In this document: one piece after another, positions 4,679-54,800 of the stretch
Layout: every line of letters starts with the position of its first letter
How positions within the stretch are numbered: the first letter of the stretch is position 1
Origin: Octopus sinensis
Lineage: Eukaryota
Assembly (NCBI RefSeq): GCF_006345805.1
Contig: NC_043006.1
Location: 3,224,001-3,288,000 of the forward strand
Reading direction: 5' to 3'
Length of the DNA: 64,000 nucleotides
Position numbers and translations under genes: made by a program
The notes under the pieces: generated by a model
Told to the model about the DNA's origin: nothing
The model's database searches: none
What the model saw: the letters and a program-made list of their open reading frames with translations, nothing else

Positions 4679-5060
4679 ACCTCTGTTTGTTTGATTCCCC
4701 GTATTGTATTCTCTTTTTATTTCTCGTCTTGTGTTTTATTGTGCAGTTTTATTGTTACATCCTGTTTGTGTTCTTACCCGTTTTACCCCGCTGCTTGGAA
4801 TTTTATTTTAATTCTCTCGCAGGAAGGCCTATTTGACGATGTGTCCTGTCGTGCCTTCGAAACACGCTTGAGTTAACTAGCGACAGCTGATGACGGTGGA
4901 TTTTTCCTTGTGTAGCATGTCCTGTACTTGTTTTCTTGTAAAAATTTTTGTTTTTCCCGTTTCTACGTCTTGTTGTGGCGTCCTGTACTTACGTATATTT
5001 ATTTATATATGCATGTATATATACATGTAGATGTATGTACGTACATATATGTTTGTATGT
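4679..5060 (+). mobile_element. (TA)n-inserted non-coding element (PLE pLTR-like), copy A
   Basis: Colinear with the reverse complement of 32305-32720; shared gtcctgtac and tacatgtaga...gtacgtacatatatg 3' motifs; flanked by (TA)n. Confidence 0.65.
4788..4896 (+). ncRNA. Putative hammerhead ribozyme of non-standard pseudoknotted topology, copy A
   Basis: Stem III tgtgt(4840-44)/acacg(4862-66); C17=4845; stem I ctgtcgt(4846-52)/gcgacag(4880-86); stem II gaaggc(4823-28)/gccttc(4853-58); GAAA 4859-62; CUGAUGA 4887-93. Confidence 0.7.
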
Positions 5061-8269: not shown

Positions 8270-9274
8270 GGTATGTAGAAAAATACAACATGGACAAGAA
8301 CGTATAACTCCTAGAAGACGACACAACAAACACGGACAGGACACTCGAAACCCCCAGTCTTCAGTCAAGAACCGGATCATCGTAGCAACTTCGGCTGATC
8401 AATCTTGAGACTACTAGATCACGGCCAGCCCTCCAAGAAAAACTAAGCAACGAGCATTAGAAAAACTAAGCTGGAAGCGTAGATTTCCTGGAAGAAGGAT
8501 CGAATGCATACGAACACCAGGACAGCAAAAGGGACAGATATAAAAAAAACAAAAAACAATAATGGAATACAGAAACATGAAATACAGAAGCATTAACGGT
8601 GAAAACAACAAGTGTCTTACGACTGATAACAAGCAAACAAATTTTTCTCTGGCGCATTGGAAGAAGCTTTATAGCGGCGGACGAAAAACAACGATGTTAA
8701 CACGACGAGGGTCAGGAGCTGAAAGGCAGATTCGGCCAACAGTCACGTGACACAGAAGAGGGAAAAGAAAAGAAAGAGAAGCAAAGGAAGAGTGAGAGAG
8801 AGGAGGGACAAACGCAACAAAGAGAGAGAAGAGAGAGAAAGAAGGAATCAGAGAGGAGAAGGATGGGTGTCGAAGAATGACCTGTGAGTGCAGAGCGAGA
8901 CAAAGAAATAGGAGGGTAGTGGAAGACTAGACCAAAGAATCAGAGGAAAGAGAAGAGAAAAAGAGGATGAGTAGAGAGAAAAGAGAGAGAGGGGACAGAT
9001 CAAGTAAAAATGAGAGAGAGAGAGAGACAAACAGAGAGTCGTACCAATTATTAAGAATATGTGCTCACATTAATGATAAGGGGGGTACGGGGCGCCTGGA
9101 ATATATGTTAAGGTATGTAGAAAAATACAACATGGACAAGAACGTATAACTCCTAGAAGACGACACAACAAACACGGACAGGACACTCGAAACCCCCAGT
9201 CTTCAGTCAAGAACCGGATCATCGTAGCAACTTCGGCTGATCAATCTTGAGACTACTAGATCACGGCCAGCCCT

Positions 9275-9277
<3 letters not shown>
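8266..9277 (-). mobile_element. Non-autonomous element with 170-bp terminal direct repeats (partial tandem pLTR-like), inserted in (TA)n
   Basis: 8266-8435 matches 9108-9277 (period 842 bp); no ORF; (TA)n on both sides. Confidence 0.85.
8351..8477 (-). ncRNA. Putative hammerhead ribozyme of non-standard topology, copy D (core repeated at 9193-9272)
   Basis: Minus strand: stem II ggctg/cagcc; stem III tagtagt/gttgcta (A15.1->G); GUC triplet (C17=8409); stem I tcaaga/tcttga; CUGAAGA; closing helix cttccag/ctggggg. Confidence 0.6.
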
Positions 9278-20640: not shown

Positions 20641-22595
20641 ATAAATAAAATATTTTATTGCGGGGAAAATATGAAAAATCAACGAAAATGCACATTGTAA
20701 ATAAAAAAAGAAAAGGCTTTTAATGACAGGTAACGACAGATATATACATTTAGATGGACTGAGGTAGTAATAAAAGTCATTATTATGAGATGATTATAAG
20801 ATGATTATAAAGTCAGAAAACAAAGCATACCATGGTTTCCGCAAAGCTATTCATTGCTTTGTATAAACACCGGCTAATAAACGGGGTCAGGTCTAATAGT
20901 TCCTGAGAAAAAAGATTATTTGTAAGGGAGGTAAGTAGTTCTGGATTTAAATATAGAATTGTAATGTGGATGGTGTAGGGAGTGTATAGGGGTTAGTGGT
21001 TTTAATTGAAGGGTTAGTAGTGTTCTGCATTGAGTTGTGTGTTCATATTTAGTTGGGGGAGATATTTATTGATGAAAAATGCCTCTTTATTCAACCTTTG
21101 TTGCATTGTGGTGTTTTGTGAACATTGATAGAAGGGGAAGATTTGGAAATTAGGATTAAGATTCCTGGCACACCTTTCTATGTGTTCACTAAGCTGTAAC
21201 TGTCTGTATTGTGGTTGGCGGATTTGCTCTTTGTGAATGGTAGTTCTTCGACGGAGTGAAATTCCTGTTTGTCTAATATAGCGGTTACCACATCCTATGC
21301 ATGTCATGACACAGATTACATTTGCTGAGGCGCAGGGGAAATTTGGTTTGATCCTAAATATTTCTCCTTGTTTGAAGTGAAACTCTGAACCCTCCAGAAG
21401 GTGGGGGAATGTTCCACAGTTAGGACGACCACATTTTTTTCACTTTTGGCTCTGTTGTTAGTGGATATAGTCCTGCGCTGGTTAATATTCTTTTCAGTGA
21501 CTTCGGTTGCATTTTGCTTTTTATAATTTTATATGAGCTTAAAATTTCGTTCATTGTTTTGTCTGCTGTGAGGATGGGAAGGTTTTGGGTGATGATGTTG
21601 AAGGCTTCGTTGTTTCTAGGGTTATGTGTGGAGATGTACGGGAGTATTTTTAAGTCTTGGTTAGTATTTCGGCTGGTGTGCCTTAACATTTATATATCTA
21701 TTTCCTTAGCTCTTTTGGTGCATTCATTTATTAATGAGATTGGGTAATGTCTTTTAGTTAGTGTTGAGCTAAGTTCAAGGAGTCTTTGTTCACGAGTATA
21801 TGTATCCGAAACTATGGTACAGATTCTTTTCGCTAGATTAAAGGGTATATTAATGTTTATGTGTTTGGGGTGGCAAGAGTTAAATAATAGGTATTGTTTA
21901 GAATCTGTGGGTTTATAAAAGATGTCTGTTTCTAAGTGGTTGTTAACTATTTTAATTAAGATGTCTAGAAAAGGGAGTTGCTTACTGTTGTGTTCCATAG
22001 TAAATTGTATATTGCTATGTATATTGTTAAGCATTATTTTGAAATCAAGGAGTTTATCCATGCTGTCTTTCCAAATTATGAAGCAATCATCCAAATATCT
22101 CTTCCATTTCTCCTTTAAATAGCAATTAAAAGAGGCGCCATATTTTTCTAGTGATGATTGGTATAACTTGAGTTCTAGGTAACTCATTACAAGGTTTGCA
22201 ATCACTGGAGCAGCTCTCGTTCCCATTGCAATTCCACATTTTTGTCGATAGTAAGTTGTATCGAACATGAAATAATTGTTCAGCAGGATGAATTTGAGTG
22301 CTTCAATTATAAAACTGTGGTTAATGCGTCCAGGGATCTCTTCTGGGTATTTTTCTAGCCAGAAAGTGATTGCTTCTACACCAGAGTCGTGTGGGGTATT
22401 GGTGTATAGACTCACCACATCGAAAGACACCAGCAGTGTTCCTTCCTTTACTGTCTTCGGGAGGTGGTTCAGCATGTCTAGGTCATCCTTGATAAAGCTT
22501 TTCACATATTTTTAAAAAGGTTTGAGTAATATGTCGAGGAAGTTGCTCAAACGGTGGGTTTCAACAAGAAGGGCCAGCTATGATGGGTCTCAGTT
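20641..22595 (-). mobile_element. 5'-truncated Penelope-like retroelement (RT plus C-terminal GIY-YIG), frameshifted
   Basis: SFDVVSLYTN, GIAMGTRAAP, WKRYLDD, LPFLD, FYKPTD..QYL; C..C...YI.QTG.SLRRR...H endonuclease; 3' pLTR. Confidence 0.95.
20820..20862 (-). ncRNA. Minimal hammerhead-like motif in the pLTR, A3:U8 core
   Basis: acaaagca-AUGAAUA-gc(ttt)gc-g-GAAAC-catg-GUA-tgctttgt. Confidence 0.65.
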
Positions 22596-22954: not shown

Positions 22955-22965
22955 AAACGTCTGAC

Positions 22966-23073
22966 GCTTACAGCACCTAGGTTTCCCAAGCGCTCACCCA
23001 TCTAAGTACTAACTAGGCTCGACGTTGCTCAATTTCGGTGATCGGACGAAAACCGGTGCTTTCAACGTGATAT
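22966..23073 (-). pseudogene. 5S rRNA pseudogene lacking about the first 9 nt
   Basis: Minus strand cacgttgaaagcaccggttttcgtccgatcaccgaaattgagcaacgtcgagcctagttagtacttagatgggtga...tgctgtaagc is metazoan 5S with substitutions. Confidence 0.9.
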
Positions 23074-23589
23074 TATTCATTAAATACTAAGTCTCTAGAT
23101 GAAAGTCAGTTATCTCGGTATAATATTGAAAATTCCGGGATCGAAACTTGGAAATGAAGACCAGCAATCCAAATGCTTGTTCCAGATTTATGCGGTGTGT
23201 ATATACTATATCCCGAGGATAGTTCATCAATTTCCTTACACACATTTCAAATTAATACAAATGCGACTTTGGAGATAATAATGCCTTTTTCGTCACTAGA
23301 AACGAAATGTTGTATCTAGGGAAGGTCATTTCACTTCTTTATTATCCATCAATTCGTTAACTATTTGATCAAAGAACTAATCGATTATTCGATGAATCAA
23401 TCAATCAATTATATTTATCAATGCCCTTTCGTCGCCATCCGCGATCTCTTCAATGACATGCCTTCTCTACTCCAAGTGTTTATACAATAATTGCAAATGA
23501 AAGAGAAATGTTAGATCGATGACATGTTTCACCGATAACTGCTTTCTCCTATATCGTAGTGTTCATACTACTACTACTACTACTACTAT

Positions 23590-26841: not shown

Positions 26842-27290
26842 GGTACAGGACGTCACCAACAGTAAACTACATGAAATACGAAAACAAATGAGTTAAATAC
26901 GCAAACAGCGAGAGAAAAAATGAAAAACAAGACGAGTAATACAAAAAATAGAAAGAACGACCCTTCATCAGTTGTCGGCTGTCTATCAGCTCCCCATTTC
27001 GAGAAATCAAAGACAACATGAGTATTCAAAGACAGTTGCTCCCATGAATACCAAAATAGATTTTCGATTTATAGAGGGCCAAATTTGGGAACAAAAACAG
27101 GACAGCGGAGACGTACAAGGAAACCGAACGAAAACAAACATGGGGGTCGTTTGACTTGAAGGAGGGGAAAATAGTGAACGTTGAGAGAAATATTTTCTTT
27201 GAAAAGAGTAAAGATAGAAGAGAGAGATAGCAGACGTCTAGTCCTTTTAACGTCCGTGCAGGAAAAGAAAAGACGTTCTAAGGACTGGAC
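26842..27290 (-). mobile_element. (TA)n-associated non-coding element (PLE pLTR-like), copy C
   Basis: Ends gacgtcctgtaccc before (TA)n; same architecture as copies A and B. Confidence 0.55.
26959..27080 (-). ncRNA. Putative hammerhead of non-standard topology, copy C (G at position 17, probably inactive)
   Basis: Stem III ctcat/atggg; stem I ttgtc/gacaa; stem II gag/ctc; GAAA; CUGAUGA; closing helix ggccct/agggtc. Confidence 0.55.
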
Positions 27291-32175: not shown

Positions 32176-32288
<113 letters not shown>

Positions 32289-32304
32289 TAATAAATGAAA
32301 TAAA

Positions 32305-33170
32305 ACATATGCATATATATAAACATATATGTACGTACCTACCTCTACATGTACATATACACGCATATATGAGTACAGGACACCAAAAGGACGTCGAACA
32401 CAATGAGAAACGAAAACATAGACACAAACCAAAGGAACTGGACATTGTTTTCAAAAACAACAAAAAATGGAGTACAGGACAATTAACACAAGGAAAAAAA
32501 CCCTTCTTCAGTCGCTATGGTTTCACCTACTCTACGTTTCGAAGGATAAAAGCAAGACGTATCTTCGACAAGAAACTTTCCTTCCTGCGAAAAGCAAATC
32601 AATTAAAATTCTGAAATCTTTTCGCAGAGGGGTAAAAAATGGTTAAAAAATGGTAAAAAAACAGGACAGTAACGACAGTACAAAAATATAAACAGTAAAA
32701 GACAGGACAGGGAAAAACAAGATAAGAAGGGCTGTTGACGCCGAACGAAAAAAGTATTGCAAACGCAGAACTTTTTGTGAACGACAGGGGAGCAGGAAGA
32801 ATGTCGTCCAGTTACCTTGAAAGGCCAGGCCAGAAAGACAGTCAGAGCGGAAGTATCGTCGCGGGTGGACGACGGGAAGGGGGGAGGAGGAGCAAGAGGA
32901 AGGGAGAGAAGAAGGGAAATGGCTGCGAGGAAACCATGAAGAATTGTGAGGGGGAGAGAGAGAGTGAAGAATGAGAGAGAGAGAGGAAGAGACAAGTTAA
33001 GTAGAGGAAAAAGAAAATCAAAGAATAGGGATGGGACAATGGAATTGTTACTATGAAGCACTGTATAGATTATATTGTATAAAAGATCGTAGGTAAGGCT
33101 AGAACAATGCGGCGAAGTAAATGCAATGCGAATCACAAGAAAACAAATATATGAATTAATGTAGACTTGC
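32305..33170 (-). mobile_element. (TA)n-inserted non-coding element (PLE pLTR-like), copy B
   Basis: Colinear with 4679-5060; purine-rich plus-strand interior like 8500-9040. Confidence 0.65.
32501..32631 (-). ncRNA. Putative hammerhead ribozyme of non-standard topology, copy B
   Basis: Stem III tacgt/acgta; GUC triplet (C17=32556); stem I ttgct/agcga; stem II gaagga/tccttc; GAAA; CUGAAGA; closing helix ccct/aggg; hairpin ctgcgaaaag/cttttcgcag. Confidence 0.72.
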
Positions 33171-34800: not shown

Positions 34801-34986
34801 GTACATCGCGATCGGCAACTACGGTTACTCATGCTACTTAAACATAGATCAACCATGTTTGTTCAATCTTTTGTCATTTCACAAATTCAGAACCATCTAC
34901 CCTTTATATAGCAATCGAGTGTATGATTTGAGGGCATTTTGATTGCTTTTTTCTAACAAGTTCCATCAGTGACAAAACGCAGACTC

Positions 34987-35160
34987 ACTCTCTCATATGG
35001 TTCAGACAGGTGATCTGGTGACGTTTGTACGTCATGCACCAACACATACCTGACAAGTGTTGCGCATAAAAGCACTCTCTCATATGGTTCAGACAGGTGA
35101 TCTGGTGACGTTTGTACGTCATGCACCAACACATACCTGACAAGTGTTGCACATAAAAGC
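34987..35160. repeat. Tandem duplication of 87 bp with one mismatch
   Basis: 34987-35073 matches 35074-35160. Confidence 0.95.
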
Positions 35161-35666
35161 AAAGAAAAAAATATATAAATAAAAAAGAAAGGTATTAAAA
35201 TAATCCCGAACAGATTTTTTTGTCTTTGTACAGAAATGGCATGAGAGTTTCCCATGTCAGAGTACGAATATTGAAATTTTAATAGCTTGTTTCATTATTT
35301 CATATTTGCTTTTGTTTTGCCTAAAATCAAGCCAAGCTTATGATCAGACAGGCACATAATAACAACTATTTTAATGTTGTATTTGTCTTTCATATCTCAG
35401 TGTTTGATAATAGCATTCTTAGTTATGACGAGTCATTCACCAGTTTATTGCCTTTGTTAAAGTAAAAGTTGAAGTTGGTGTGTGTACTTCGGTCGCCTTC
35501 ATTCGCTGACGCTTACATCCTTCGGTGATATGCACTATTGAAAGTAATATCTGAATCTTCACATATCTATCTTATAGTTCCTCTCTTTTTTTTGCATGTC
35601 CGTTTCTCTGTATCCCCTTCTCTTTCTATACTCACACTCACACACACACACACACACATACACACA

Positions 35667-39469: not shown

Positions 39470-40722
39470 GGTGAGAAAGTTGGTGTGTGAAAGGATGTGG
39501 TTGAATATATAGAAAATAGTAAAAAGTGAAAAAACTACAGAAGGCTTGTTTTAGAAGGTTAAAAAATATATATTTGAGTTATTATGTCTGAAGAATGTTA
39601 TAAATTTTTTTCATACAATGACATAGTTTTTGAAGAAAGACCGGTTTCGCGTTCAGCTTTTCAAATTTCTTACATCGTTATGTTTACGTTGAGAAGTGTG
39701 AAGGAGAGTGAAAGAGAGTTCCAGATAAGGGGAGGTAATAAGTGATTTCTTCCGGTGTAAGGGAGATAATCGCTTAATATTTCTTGCCTTTCTTTTGGAG
39801 TGAGTTTCTCTGTATAAGAATGTTGGAATGGTTAAGTTTGGGCTTGTATTTTTCAATGAAGAATGTTTCCTTGTTTAGTCTAATATGTGTTGGTGTTCCG
39901 ATAGCACATTGGTAAAATGGAAAGATTAAAAATTGTGGTAGTAGTTGCTTTGCGCATTTCTCAATGTGCTCACTAAAGGGTATTATTCTGTATTCTGGGA
40001 ATGCAATCTGTTGTCGATGCAGTGTGCATCTACGTCTGAGTGATAGTCCCGTGGACCCCACGTGGTTTTGGTGGCAGCCCGAGCATTTTATGACATAAAT
40101 TATGTTTTCAGAGGCACAAGTAAAATTAGATTTGATCTTGAATTTCTGTCCCTCTTTGAAGAAGAATTCTGATCCTTCTAGCAGGTTTGGACATGTTGCA
40201 CAGTTCGGTCTACCACATTTTTTTACTTTTGCATCCGTAATTTCAGAAAACAATTTTGCCTTTGTGAGAATCTTTTAAAGTGATTTAGGTTGTTTGTAGC
40301 TTTTAATGATTTGGTGTGTGTTTAAAATTTCCTTTAATTTGGGGTCCTTATGAAGTATTGGTAAATTCTGGGTGATGATGGTGAAGGCTTCTTTGTTTCT
40401 GGGGTTGTATGTGGATATGTAAGGTAGTATTTTCGGGGAAGGTATGTTGTTGTGTTGAACTTTTTTCAAAGTTTCTATGTTGATTTCTGTTGCACGTCTG
40501 ATCCCATACTCTATGAGTTGAGCTGGGTAATGTCTGTCAATTAGGGTGTTTTTGAGTTCTTGCAGTCTAAAGTTCCTGGTATTTTGTTCTGACACTATTG
40601 TGCATATCCTTCTTGCAAGGTTGAAGGGGATGTTTGTTTTAGTGTGTCTTGGGTGGCATGAATCAAAAAGTAGGTATTGTTTGGCGTCTGTGACTTTGTA
40701 AAAAATGTCTGTTTCTATTTTA
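39470..40722 (-). mobile_element. 5'-truncated Penelope-like element (RT thumb, GIY-YIG, pLTR)
   Basis: FYKVTDAKQYL; KKCGRPNCATC...NIIYVIKCSGC...VGSTG.SLRRR; same family as 57627-58598. Confidence 0.95.
39633..39671 (-). ncRNA. Minimal hammerhead-like motif, U3:A8 core
   Basis: aagaaa(t)-UUGAAAA-gc(tgaac)gc-GAAAC-cg-GUC-tttctt. Confidence 0.7.
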
Positions 40723-40724
40723 GA

Positions 40725-41488
40725 CGACCTTTTGTTTTTTTTTCACAGAGTTCTAGAGTGACCGTTTTTCACCATCTTCTTGTAACACCCATACATTTGT
40801 CCAATGATCTTTGTAAGTGACTCGTAACATTCTCCAATACATCCACATTTCAAACATATTTGATTTTGTTCTCTTCAAATTTCTTCAGTGTCCATCCTTC
40901 GCAACCATAAATACTTATCAGCCAAATGAGTGCTCATACGAGCCTTATTTTCTAAATTTAATTGTGGCACTTTTGCTGGTTCAGTTGTTATCAAGCTTTT
41001 CCCTAGACGTTCCTGCCATGGCTAACCGTGACCTAATTTCTTACTTGTATCTTCATCTGAGATCTGGGCTCCAGCATACTTGTACAATTTAACCTGTTCG
41101 AGCTTCTCACTATTCAGTCTGATGTTAACGTTTACTTACTCTTTTCCTACTACGGTGACTTTTGTTTTATTATAATTCAGATAAAGACTATGCGCATACC
41201 TTCTCGATTCTATATATCATTTCTTGCAGTCCGGTTTCGGTCTTGGCAAGTAGAGCACTATCGTCTGCCTATCTTAGATTAGAAATATGCAAAACCATTT
41301 ATTTTGATACCATCTTTTTCCTGTATTGGTTCTCGCATTACCCACTTATTGGATAATGAGGTATTTCGAAATACCAAGATTGGTCATGATGCGTCACATG
41401 TGGCTATAGTTTTCACAGTCAACGGCCTTTCTGTAGTCAACGTACCGAAGCAAAGCTGTAAGGTTGTGAGCTCTTGTATTTTTCCCTA
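40725..41488 (-). mobile_element. RTE LINE RT fragment
   Basis: YVDYRKAVD, ADDSALLA, KTKV, EIRSRLAMA motifs. Confidence 0.8.
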
Positions 41489-51804: not shown

Positions 51805-54800
51805 ATTATTCAGTTTTATTTCAAGATTTTTTGCAAATAGAGAGTCTGTTTCTAAACTAGATTCAAAGCTACTTCATTAGAATTTGAACATCAACAACAG
51901 GGTATGTTTGTTTGTATGCATGTATGTATGTATGTGTGAATGTATGTATATATGAATGTATGTATGTATGTATGTATGTATGTATGTATGTATGTATGTA
52001 TGTATATTTGTATGTATGTATATGTGCAGATTTGTATCTTTTGCTTTACATGTGCATATATATTTAAATGATAAATTTCTGGAAAGTTGTAATCTGGATA
52101 GAGTAACTGCAGATTCTTCAATAATCCGGCGTAGGTGTTCTCTTTTTCACTGATCTTCAGCTTTATGTTAACATCAACTGGGCAGCTAATTTCCACAACT
52201 GTGCACAATTTCTCTTTATCCCAAATCATTAAATCATGTCTGTTGTACTTACATGTTATTGAAGTCTTCACTAGGACATTCCACCAGTACTCCTTGTTTA
52301 TTATGAGTAACTATGGCTTCTACCATACTGTGGGATCTTATTTCTTTGCTTGGGGTTATCCTTCCGACGGATTTCTTTATAGTGTCCCTAGCTACAACAT
52401 AAGTCTCATCGGTAGATAAAACCATGGTGACATTTTCGGACAATAGCTTATGATATGGGTGTATGTATATATGTAAAGGAAGTGAGCAACATTGTACGAG
52501 TTGCCAGTGAACTCCTCACGAAACACTCTCTCCTGCTCACTTCACTTTTCAGCACTGCATTTATATGTTTATTTTTGCTGCTGTTGTTTAGCAGGTGCTG
52601 CCTGAGTGATACCATACAGCATTCAAAGGCCGTCTGCACTGATCACAGGCCTCTACCACCATGCCTGTATCAGCTGAAAATGTTGTTATCAATTCCAGTT
52701 GTCTTTGGCATTGTTAACACGTTTAGCATAAATCTTCAGGTCGTCTACGAAGAAATTATGAGTTACATTGATATTTCTGGTAGTTGAAGATCCTAGCATG
52801 TAACCATTTGTTTTCTGCAGTAGAAACGATAATGGATTCAGTGCCAAAACGAAAAGAAATACAGAAAGACTATCTCCCTGGACCATTCCCTTTGTAATGC
52901 CTATACTATTAGAAACAATTATTGTGTTCTCAGTTGTAAGGGTAAGAATAGCTGTCCATGTCTTTGTGAGTCTCTCTATAGCAACAATTAAGGTAGTATG
53001 TACCTTTGCCAGATGTAGGCACTTCAACAGCCATGAATGAAGGATAGAGTCAAATGCCTTCTTATAGTCAGGTCATACGGTTACAATGCGTTGTTTTCTT
53101 ACTTCAGATAGTACAGCTTTGTTTATTAAAAGTTGTTCGGCCGTCATCCCCACACTCCCTTCTTTCCACCATCCTATTCATCAGTCACAATGTTGTTAAA
53201 CTCTCAATGGTCCTGGAGGAATTGGTTGAGGTAACTTGTGTATAGTTTATACATATTGTTTAAGCAAGCAATGGGCCTGTAGTTTCCTGCCATCTCGGTG
53301 ATTTCATTTTTGGCAACAAGATTTGTCTTTGTGTAGCAATGTGATATACCAGTCTGACCTTCCGTAGTCCTTTTGAACATACATATCAATTAGTTCTATA
53401 AAATATCAGCTTCTTGTATCAATATCCAGCTATTAGGTCCTTTCTAGATGCCTTCCCATTCTGCAGTTTGCCTACTGCTATAGCGAAGGTCTCTGCATCA
53501 ATTTTCTATGTTTTACTGTTAGTGTTGGTACAGTATTCTCTCTCAATCGTATTTAACCATGATACACTCAGTTTGAAATCCATCCTTTTGTTCCAAACTT
53601 TTGATCAGAATGATTGTAGGTCTTCTTGGGAGGGAGTTTTTTTGATGGAAATATTTTCTTTCCTCGTCTCTCTCTCTATAATTCTTGTGGGTTGGAAGCA
53701 AACTTGTGATTGATACTCAAAAAGTCGCTTGCAATAGCGGAGTTTCTCGCTCATCGTCCTGAGTTCATGTTTTAAAGTGATTTGCTTTCCCTCAAGAGCT
53801 CGGTGTGAAGAGTTGCCATAAAGATTCATTAATTTTTGTCTGAGGTAGAGTTGGTGAGGTGTAAACTCATTTTTTCTCCTTACATTTTATTGTTGTAGTT
53901 AACCATCCAATATGGCGGCGCACGTTGTTGATGTTTTCGTCAAGTTTTGTTTTCCATCTAGTTTGTTTCCGTTTAGTAATTTCGTTATTTTGTTCACTGT
54001 AGATTTCTCCTAAAGTGTTCTTTAAGAGTAATAGCGGCTGTGTATATAAGAGTATTACTATTCTAGTAATTAGCATCCCATGATTCCATGTGCTCTCCAG
54101 CAACATCGTTGATAACCTTAAACATTAGATCGGTCGGATTTTTCTCTCACTCGCGCTGAGAATAGTCTGTTGCTCAACGAAAACTTCGAGAGAGTAGCAA
54201 AAGGTTTTGCGAATTGTAATTCTGAAATGCTTATGAGTTGGTTGTATTCCACAGTCTCGCTACTGAGTCAGCTAAATTTGGAGACACACTCGAATTTAGC
54301 GATGGCGGAAGTGGTCGTTTGTTTACAATTTTTTTTACGCCGCTCCTGGCAGATTTTGACCCGTTTTCAGTGTTTTGGGAAGATCGAAGACGAGTGTTTT
54401 TTTTTTTCCAAAAGATGCTTGTTGTCGGAGCTGTTTTACCATGAAGGTATTTAAGTTCGGATAAGCTTCCTCCTAGTATTGTTTTTTTAACCGGTTCATA
54501 TATCCGATTGAAAGGTTATCTCAGGCTTTTTTCATAGCACCGACGTAAATCTTGGTTTAGTTGTTGAGTCCAAGTAAAATGAGAAGATTTCTTACGTCTT
54601 CTGAAATATTTTACCGGTGAAATTGTTCTGTTTTCATCGGTGGTGACGTTGTTAGTTTCATCTGCGGTGGAGTTAGTTTCAGCCATAATCGTGATAGCGA
54701 GATACAACGTGGTGTAGATGTATATTTTAAAATCTGCTTAGGATAGTGCTACGATGGCGAGAAAAAGGTGTTTCTCTTATTAATTGTTGGAGAAATAAAC

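Follow-up and report, generated by a model that had tools for sequence, protein, structure and literature searches.

In the type SGC and CSG hammerheads reported by Eckert et al. (2023, PMC10085705), a helix between stems I and II has been described, and disruption and rescue showed it to be required for cleavage. According to the available text, the examples come from metatranscriptomes and metagenomes, none from a known genome; SGC ribozymes are stated to cut during transcription, and the connection of the I/II helix to stem III is left open. The word "kink" is absent from the supplement of that paper. PLE hammerheads form a second group of relatives. Their dimerisation is put down to a helix III that is palindromic and has no more than 1-2 bp, or is missing altogether (Cervera and de la Pena 2014, PMC4209133), and because an extra base is common in them between positions 9 and 10.1, that step is known to be tolerant.

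Naiad PLEs have been reported without canonical hammerheads, eight being marked "HHR_half_core", and in the available part of the same paper the cephalopod Naiads are called long inactive (Craig et al. 2021, PMC8557442). For another PLE studied in vitro, the accessible portion of the work gives cleavage as protein-dependent and unneeded for insertion, with no RNA ends at the site (PMC11167929). Animal non-LTR retrozymes (PMC7229834; Li et al. 2026, 10.64898/2026.07.22.740005) are described as non-coding, dispersed and tandem repeats of 51-972 bp with one type I hammerhead per unit, linked to PLEs and with circular RNA shown.

Here, a 64,000-nucleotide stretch of Octopus sinensis DNA (contig NC_043006.1; the window), which is AT-rich and contains many microsatellites, was analysed around one copy of a hammerhead motif, copy B. 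Like the type SGC and CSG hammerheads, the motif has all core residues, a short linker from the cut-site block to the GAAA block, a helix that connects stems I and II at their outer ends, and a link from this helix to stem III. It differs from them, as far as the available text of PMC10085705 describes them, in that the CUGANGA block is interrupted between A9 and G10.1, with two extra helices filling the opened step, and in that both strands of the I/II helix enter stem III, giving a ring with a kink-turn or an AGUA/GAA motif. The sole paper on non-circularly permuted hammerheads explicitly assumed such an interruption to be impossible, and the split core breaks that assumption. A literature search that reached few subscription journals and no bioRxiv supplements did not find this wiring in print.

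Architecture of the motif

From its sequence, copy B is read as a split-core permuted hammerhead motif, a predicted ribozyme. From 5' to 3' it comprises ACCCCU, a perfect 10-bp hairpin, GAAGG, GUUUC, UACGUC, UUGCU, CCUUC, GAAACGUA, GAAAC, AGCGA, CUGAAGA and AGGGU, the GAAA region reading CCUUC GAAA CGUA (Table 1). The core residues CUGAAGA, GAAA and GUC agree with the CUGANGA/GAAA/NUH set required of a hammerhead. The features that an earlier note on this DNA had listed, namely an intact core, a perfect stem III (five Watson-Crick pairs), a GUC triplet and a 10-bp auxiliary hairpin, are thus all present, on the minus strand. That copy B is the best-preserved copy held only in part. Its core is intact, as is that of copy A, and it carries three weakening changes relative to the family majority: U.G instead of C-G in stem I (32554), U.G instead of U-A in the extension of the linker helix (32526) and a shorter closing helix (32500). 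Assembled contigs of 4 presumed RNA runs and 4 other sequencing runs gave coverage, which as contig data has no bearing on expression, and served to confirm the family-majority letters.

Table 1. Positions in the window of copy B, its parts, its host repeat and the other copies of the motif.
Feature	Position	Strand	Remarks
Host repeat of copy B	32277..33038	-	about 90 bp short at 5' end; (TA)n end
Whole split-core permuted hammerhead, copy B	32500..32633	-	
Closing helix P0, 5' strand	32628..32633	-	partner 32500-32504; only 4 bp in copy B
Auxiliary hairpin	32585..32627	-	10-bp base, 32627-32618 with 32594-32585; adjoins P0 at one side, G10.1 at the other
Stem II, 5' strand	32580..32584	-	GAAGG; G10.1 = 32584; separate from CUGANGA
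Linker 1	32562..32579	-	GUUUC 32576-32572, GUC 32569-32567, GAA 32566-32564, GA hinge
Cut-site block	32551..32561	-	stem III 5' strand 32561-32557, C17 32556, stem I 5' strand 32555-32551
Predicted cut	between 32556 and 32555	-	
GAAA block	32533..32545	-	stem II 3' strand 32545-32541, G12-A14 32540-32538, stem III 3' strand 32537-32533
Linker 2	32517..32532	-	AGUA 32531-32528, 3-bp extension strand 32527-32525, GAAAC 32524-32520
Stem I 3' strand and CUGAAGA	32505..32516	-	stem I 3' strand 32516-32512, CUGAAGA 32511-32505
Closing helix P0, 3' strand	32500..32504	-	immediately 3' of A9
Copy A	4788..4897	+	kink-turn class; core intact
Copy C	26959..27080	-	AGUA/GAA class; G at position 17 (family majority A)
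Copy D, first of two tandem units	9193..9276	-	5'-truncated just ahead of stem II; GAAG replacing GAAA
Copy D, second tandem unit	8350..8480	-	

The blocks follow the order cut site, GAAA, CUGANGA (S-G-C). This is the order of Eckert's type SGC and not the C-G-S order, without pseudoknots, of the Rfam types I, II and III. In type SGC a stem II strand lies 0-2 nt after CUGANGA; here an upstream strand pairs instead. The strand after CUGANGA forms no pairs with the strand before GAAA at offset 0, directly after A9, in 23/23 clusters. The stem II 5' strand lies about 20-28 nt upstream of the cut site, and in 177 of the 181 copies with an intact core its first base is the G that faces C11.1. This strand and its partner covary, with 4.5 Watson-Crick pairs against 2.3 across 10 unique types (0/20000 permutations; the families are related, so that permutation P values here and below overstate independence and are upper bounds on certainty).

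The closing helix begins with the base after A9 and pairs with the sequence just ahead of the auxiliary hairpin, which ends at G10.1. Of the 21 representatives, 14 have it directly next to the hairpin and two others form it beyond a 2x2 mismatch; in L183, L228 and the two L263 copies it is weak or missing. In an alignment of 18 sequences, 92% of the cells of the closing helix, hairpin base and the stems I-III are paired, and 19 of the 24 pairs are changed on both sides, a level reached in 0/500 shuffles, while slid controls gave 41-44%. For stems I, II and III the share is 13/15 pairs. Position 17 is not G in 179/181 intact-core copies, though the scan left this position free. Sequence and covariation establish the three stems, stem II with its strand from upstream, as well as the closing helix and hairpin. 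So read, the CUGANGA block is interrupted between A9 and G10.1, with the closing helix and the hairpin inserted, and a four-way junction would lie at this step.

It is scarcely credible that the motif is simply of type SGC, with A9 followed by a single extra base, so that the G-run following CUGANGA would form stem II and the helices upstream would be incidental. Families of the B, C and A2 kind do allow a 4-bp pairing (two G.U) one base after A9, the step at which PLE hammerheads commonly have an extra base (PMC4209133). Nevertheless, among the 21 non-truncated clusters there are 9 in which that pairing amounts to 0-2 bp, and every D-like family and the Naiad type belong to these; the upstream strand pairs and covaries in all clusters.

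Two further variants were seen. L183 244-398 (+) and L228 1854-2008 (-) represent a compact version, with only 20 nt from G12 to C3, a stem III of 3-4 bp, a 7-bp linker helix, a small asymmetric loop replacing the kink-turn and no clear closing helix. In one kink-turn family (L281, L282, L291), CUGAUGA is followed by the reverse complement of CUGAUG, and the core strand could fold on itself.

Copy number and chance level

Whereas the earlier note counted four copies, the window has five, with family D occurring twice. Copies A-D belong to separate repeat families, each with about 1,700-1,850 first-look candidates genome-wide. The 2.72-Gb assembly was searched with two patterns spanning GAAA to CUGAWGA, of which one returned 3387 matches (reversed control, 106) and the other 4862 (control, 1); these counts take in truncated copies and the two sets overlap slightly, giving together roughly 8,000. 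A structure descriptor found one strict match in 400 kb of arbitrary genome stretches and none in five dinucleotide shuffles. Copy B is one among thousands of genomic copies, and the whole architecture is far above chance; that it is real is close to certain. Permuted hammerheads are in this way moved from environmental RNA into an animal genome.

Rfam gave no hammerhead family match in the window at the gathering score and no hammerhead in 7 loci at E up to 5, where the only matches were of microsatellites to miRNA models. Minimum-energy folding was not significant for 4 of 5 copies, and copy B is unremarkable by it (z -0.59), which is to be expected of a pseudoknotted fold since the method cannot represent pseudoknots.

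The linker helix

The linker pairs quoted in the earlier note (A ttgac/gttaa, B gtttc/gaaac, C ctgtct/agacag, D gccg-t-gatc/gatc-cggt) are all present. That note had made the pairing depend on covariation among further copies, and covariation was found. Over 21 representatives, linkers pair with their own partner at -8.9 kcal/mol and with permuted partners at -4.9 kcal/mol (0/20000). Each representative was the medoid, or the member with the best core, of a cluster formed at 84% identity, and linker pairing played no part in the choice; the 21 come from the 23 clusters minus L322 and L409, which are truncated false parses. Over all 23 clusters the values were -8.3 kcal/mol for the own partner and -4.1 kcal/mol for partners from families less than 70% alike. 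An alignment-free comparison was used because the MAFFT alignment misaligns the linker helix and the Naiad row.

The effect is also seen inside copy B's class (-7.7 vs -5.5 kcal/mol, P 0.0006, n=9), and it holds outside the class too (n=12). In the copy B family alone the linker duplex is no better than chance, with the medoid at -5.2 and the shuffled mean at -5.3 kcal/mol (P 0.47). On these sequence comparisons, support for the linker pairing of copy B comes from the comparison between families.

The linker helix starts 0-3 nt from the strands of stems II and I and therefore equals the I/II helix of types SGC and CSG. It would tie together the outer ends of stems I and II. The second three-way junction that had been suggested to close the structure fits this arrangement: stems I and II and the linker helix meet, the cage is right in topology, and the SGC/CSG hammerheads provide the precedent. 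The linkers had also been said to extend stem III. The pairing itself exists, but in copy B the two helices are separated by 10 and 8 nt, so it is no plain extension. The connection from I/II helix to stem III in permuted hammerheads becomes testable in this motif.

Ring closure

Both strands of the linker helix run on into stem III, giving a closed ring. Between the two helices, 5-6 bp from the core, the sequence agrees with the kink-turn consensus, in which a canonical helix, a 3-nt bulge and tandem G.A and A.G lead to a second helix, in 7 of 21 representatives, copy B not among them. In 8 of 21, which make up copy B's class, AGUA stands opposite GAA beside a 1x2 or 1x3 loop. We take AGUA/GAA to be a loop-E-like motif; to our knowledge it has not been described as a sharp bend. 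The majority of family A also has the kink-turn, its medoid carrying a change, while family D and three small families have neither motif. The occurrence of two bend motifs at one position offers a natural test of kink-turn equivalents. The distance from G12 to C3 is 27-30 nt in 179/181 copies of both classes; part of this set came from spacing-limited patterns, and another pattern, which permitted totals of about 34-44, gave 36-39.

The included angle of a kink-turn is given as 50 degrees in the available text of PMC5061560. In a crude geometry with this angle, the helix ends lie 28-30 Å apart on the axis and 9-12 Å apart less the backbone radii, compared with 64-70 Å for a straight rod. General values for helix dimensions were used, and a gap of 9-12 Å would be reachable by linkers of 0-3 nt, as an estimate and not a model.

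Stem III is about 5 bp long, with at least 4 bp in 20/21 representatives and 4-7 bp in 19/21. No palindrome is conserved at one place among the 21 representatives; the recurring UUCGAA (9/21) is a by-product of stem II and GAA. The short helix III (0-2 bp) with palindromic loop of the dimer-dependent PLE hammerheads is thus not seen, and because stem III is complete and no palindrome is conserved, the known cause of PLE dimers does not apply. Minimal type I PLE hammerheads share with the motif the PLE context and a 9-10.1 step that tolerates insertion; unlike it, they are almost without helix III and have a palindrome instead (PMC4209133, as far as available). The statement of the earlier note that minimal PLE hammerheads cleave efficiently as dimers was too strong, since the accessible part of that paper reports low activity for the dimeric minimal PLE motifs. 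Nor is there support for strain in the monomer pointing to a domain-swapped dimer, as had been proposed: stem III is complete, no palindrome recurs, and the kink-turn consensus in 7/21 gives the bend that a monomer needs. On the sequence, a monomer is probable in preference to a dimer.

In such a dimer, each RNA would be a rod, with the cut site and GAAA in its tip loop and the stem II strand and CUGANGA in its base loop; two rods, for example neighbouring tandem units, would dock head to tail to give two trans cores. The nested fold does form such a rod (L414, L041), many copies are tandem, and dimeric action is documented for metazoan hammerheads with a short helix III (PMC4209133, PMC7229834, in the parts available). 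Moreover, closure in cis is tight even with a kink-turn, and closure is left without an explanation in the AGUA/GAA class. The dimer is nevertheless unlikely. Apart from the complete stem III and the lack of a palindrome at one place, the kink-turn, at a constant 5-6 bp from the core, folds the tip back onto its own base, and the stem II strands, made in order and near each other, would pair in cis first. In addition, octopus and squid Naiads carrying the fold are listed without pLTR in the available part of Craig et al. (2021, PMC8557442). The dimer may be least disfavoured for copy B's class, where the bend would need AGUA/GAA and the 1x2 loop.

A conformational switch had also been proposed, and it has a basis only in copy B's class, where G8-A9-AGG copies the stem II strand. 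Eight of the 21 representatives, copy B among them, allow this decoy a perfect 5-bp pairing to the 3' strand of stem II. In copy B's class its energy equals that of the regular stem II strand, and in copy B the inactive decoy pairing is the one taken by the minimum-energy fold. The RNA would then rest in an inactive fold, G8-A9 and the next bases lying on the stem II 3' strand, and would cut once the closing helix forms or a protein remodels it; some transcripts would stay uncut for full-length copying, which would modify rather than replace the monomer model. Read-through of the cut site is seen in about two thirds of copies, and another PLE hammerhead is protein-assisted (PMC11167929, in the accessible portion). 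Across families, however, the decoy does not covary (2.5 vs 2.2 pairs over 10 unique types, P 0.18) and is absent in several of them, and slow cleavage or circular templates also account for the read-through. A switch is accordingly rated improbable, more so than the dimer, and the monomer is retained as the preferred form.

Carrier repeat and relation to Naiads

The copy B repeat is a non-coding unit of about 860 bp with a longest ATG frame of 77 codons, and it is 96-97% alike to its best matches. It occurs solo, 5'-truncated, inverted and in tandem arrays. As in the animal non-LTR retrozymes, the unit is non-coding, dispersed and tandem, carries one hammerhead, is linked to PLEs and has a length within the reported range. 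The retrozymes differ in having type I hammerheads and shown circular RNA, whereas the octopus motif is permuted and known from genomic sequence. Inverted double insertions with the junction a few bases inside the predicted cut site were observed separately in five loci (L294, L323, L324, L327, L454).

The fold is also found at Naiad ends. By eye, one repeat family (L077) agrees with Naiad_Obim and Naiad_Ovul at their 3' ends, and these ends have the very same split fold and the (TA)n target in common with the copy B repeat; L232 has a reverse-transcriptase fragment upstream. The copy B repeat differs from Naiads in being non-coding, and the fold is not described in the available part of PMC8557442. 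The copy B unit showed no match to any PLE end among 60 loci, Naiad ends included, and the fold architecture and the (TA)n target are all that it was detected to share with Naiad ends. In three loci (L077 1330-1365 (-), L297, L376), tails of about 30 bp past the TA-rich 3' end equal the start of the next unit, which is a PLE tail signature.

All the half-core Naiad ends but Naiad-4_Dst were compared, as displayed in the accessible part of Craig et al. The spider element and three nematode elements (Naiad_Smim, Naiad_Parc, Naiad-3_Nbra, Naiad_Hpol) show by eye the type CSG layout with I/II helix, the octopus end has the split form, and the squid Naiad_Esco looks like a decayed split form. One ostracod half-core end gave nothing clear. 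In the approximately 600 displayed bases of four other Naiad 3' ends no such fold was seen (Naiad-3_Dst, Adux, CGi, Tama and Mcor are among those shown). Standard descriptors are blind to this block order, a possible answer to the seeming want of hammerheads in Naiads. As a further observation, two CSG hammerheads from soil metagenomes (PMC10085705) share their layout with nematode Naiad 3' ends (PMC8557442) in the portions of these papers available, and they may be nematode retroelement DNA.

Predicted cleavage and 5' ends of genomic copies

The starts of shortened copies were compared with the predicted cut. In the B class, 26 of 92 copies at risk start within the 24 nt after it, against 4.9 expected from the upstream rate (P 2e-11; two possible duplicate events reduce 26 to 24, P 5e-10). 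In the next 24 nt upstream the figure was 3/66, and downstream 1/93. The set was obtained with a pattern of the stem I 3' strand, CUGAAGA and the next bases, and it comprises 95 copies from the first 100 listed of 3177 matches, with the internal deletions L361 and L389 dropped from the test. Short B-class copies mostly occur singly, with a (TA)n end about 230 nt downstream. For a kink-turn family, 13 of 29 copies start just after the cut, with 1.8 expected (P 6e-8; first 30 of 1766 matches, the internal deletion L462 dropped). These ends were scored against full-length references; automatic boundaries gave 8/30 (P 0.31), inflated by shared TA flanks. TA/AT content is not higher at the pile-up.

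The starts do not mark the cut exactly. The B-class peak lies 5-10 nt inside it and only 1 of 26 falls precisely on it, and among top-identity copies seeded from the cut, a set that favours full-length copies, 0/36 rows start exactly there. In the Naiad remnants no pile-up was seen (0/30 among the first 30 of 287 matches, about 4 expected).

Because many shortened copies begin just after the predicted cut, self-cleavage of the RNA in the cell is likely. For these families the genomic sequence makes it quite probable that cleavage takes place in vivo, and it may be cleavage that makes the 5' end of the templates. The pile-up bears on cleavage and is silent on monomer versus dimer. A structure that no longer cuts, conserved for protein binding or as a pause for reverse transcriptase, could also give a pile-up by stalling the enzyme in the pseudoknot. 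The position of the ends, mostly 5-10 nt inside the cut rather than at it, and the Naiad remnants agree with such stalling. The catalytic residues are kept, however, together with G10.1-C11.1 (177/181) and not-G at position 17 (179/181), and the ends drop sharply upstream of the cut, with no peak at the 10-bp hairpin or the closing helix. Stalling in a non-cutting structure is for these reasons considered highly improbable. In vivo cutting by PLE ribozymes becomes testable, the pile-up of insertion starts being indirect evidence for it.

Proposed mechanism

We lean, with moderate confidence, towards the following reading of the sequence. Copy B would be a split-core hammerhead within a high-copy non-coding repeat that acts as a single closed molecule, cuts the repeat RNA after GUC and sets the 5' ends of templates. 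Since both strands of the linker helix also continue into stem III, the RNA would double back on itself, the bend coming from a kink-turn or, in copy B's class, from AGUA/GAA beside the small loop. The closing helix, hairpin, stem II and core stack would form a four-way junction that holds stem II on stem III. Cut transcripts would be copied by a Penelope-like reverse transcriptase from the TA-rich 3' end, dropping off 0-20 nt before the cut, and uncut or re-ligated circular RNAs would give rise to longer and tandem copies.

The split form may have originated by circular permutation of the type CSG hammerhead found at spider and nematode Naiad 3' ends; this origin is proposed because closing stem III onto the I/II helix and opening the chain after A9 converts one into the other. 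A wider reading, to which we give about even chances, would make the motif a naturally occurring hammerhead, its catalytic strand running as far as A9 at a four-way junction, its closed peripheral ring bent by interchangeable turns, either a kink-turn or an AGUA/GAA turn so far undescribed, and its action that of a monomer in an animal germ line; it would be one circular permutation of a CSG-type ribozyme family, this family would be the missing Naiad ribozyme across phyla, and the pile-up would be a genomic record of cleavage in vivo.

Other elements in the window

A different PLE, with a C-terminal endonuclease, is abundant in the same genome. Its minimal motif stands in direct contrast to the split motif, and the split fold is absent in 30 of its loci. 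As seen at 39632-39671 (-) and in L121-L150, this PLE ends in a hammerhead-like motif of minimal type I, in which stem I has 7 bp and a palindromic ACCGGU takes the position of stem III; motifs of this kind are expected to require dimers. UUGAAAA replaces CUGANGA in most of the 28/30 loci keeping the GAAACCGGT part; its U3 and A8 presumably form a compensated 3-8 pair. This PLE is a candidate mover of the young B family.

Two broken PLE frames, with reverse transcriptase followed by a GIY-YIG-like domain and a cysteine linker, lie at 21014-22511 and 39774-40742 (-), and we assume them to be Neptune-like. The second has 18509 first-look candidates, and its top matches are 91-97% identical. A diverged 5S rRNA match (22965-23084 (-), 71 bits) is followed directly by a SINE-like repeat and (TA)n. 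A fragment of a non-LTR reverse transcriptase frame at 52689-53072 (-) is unrelated to the hammerhead motif, and two nearly identical tandem copies of 87 bp (98%) occupy 34986-35161.
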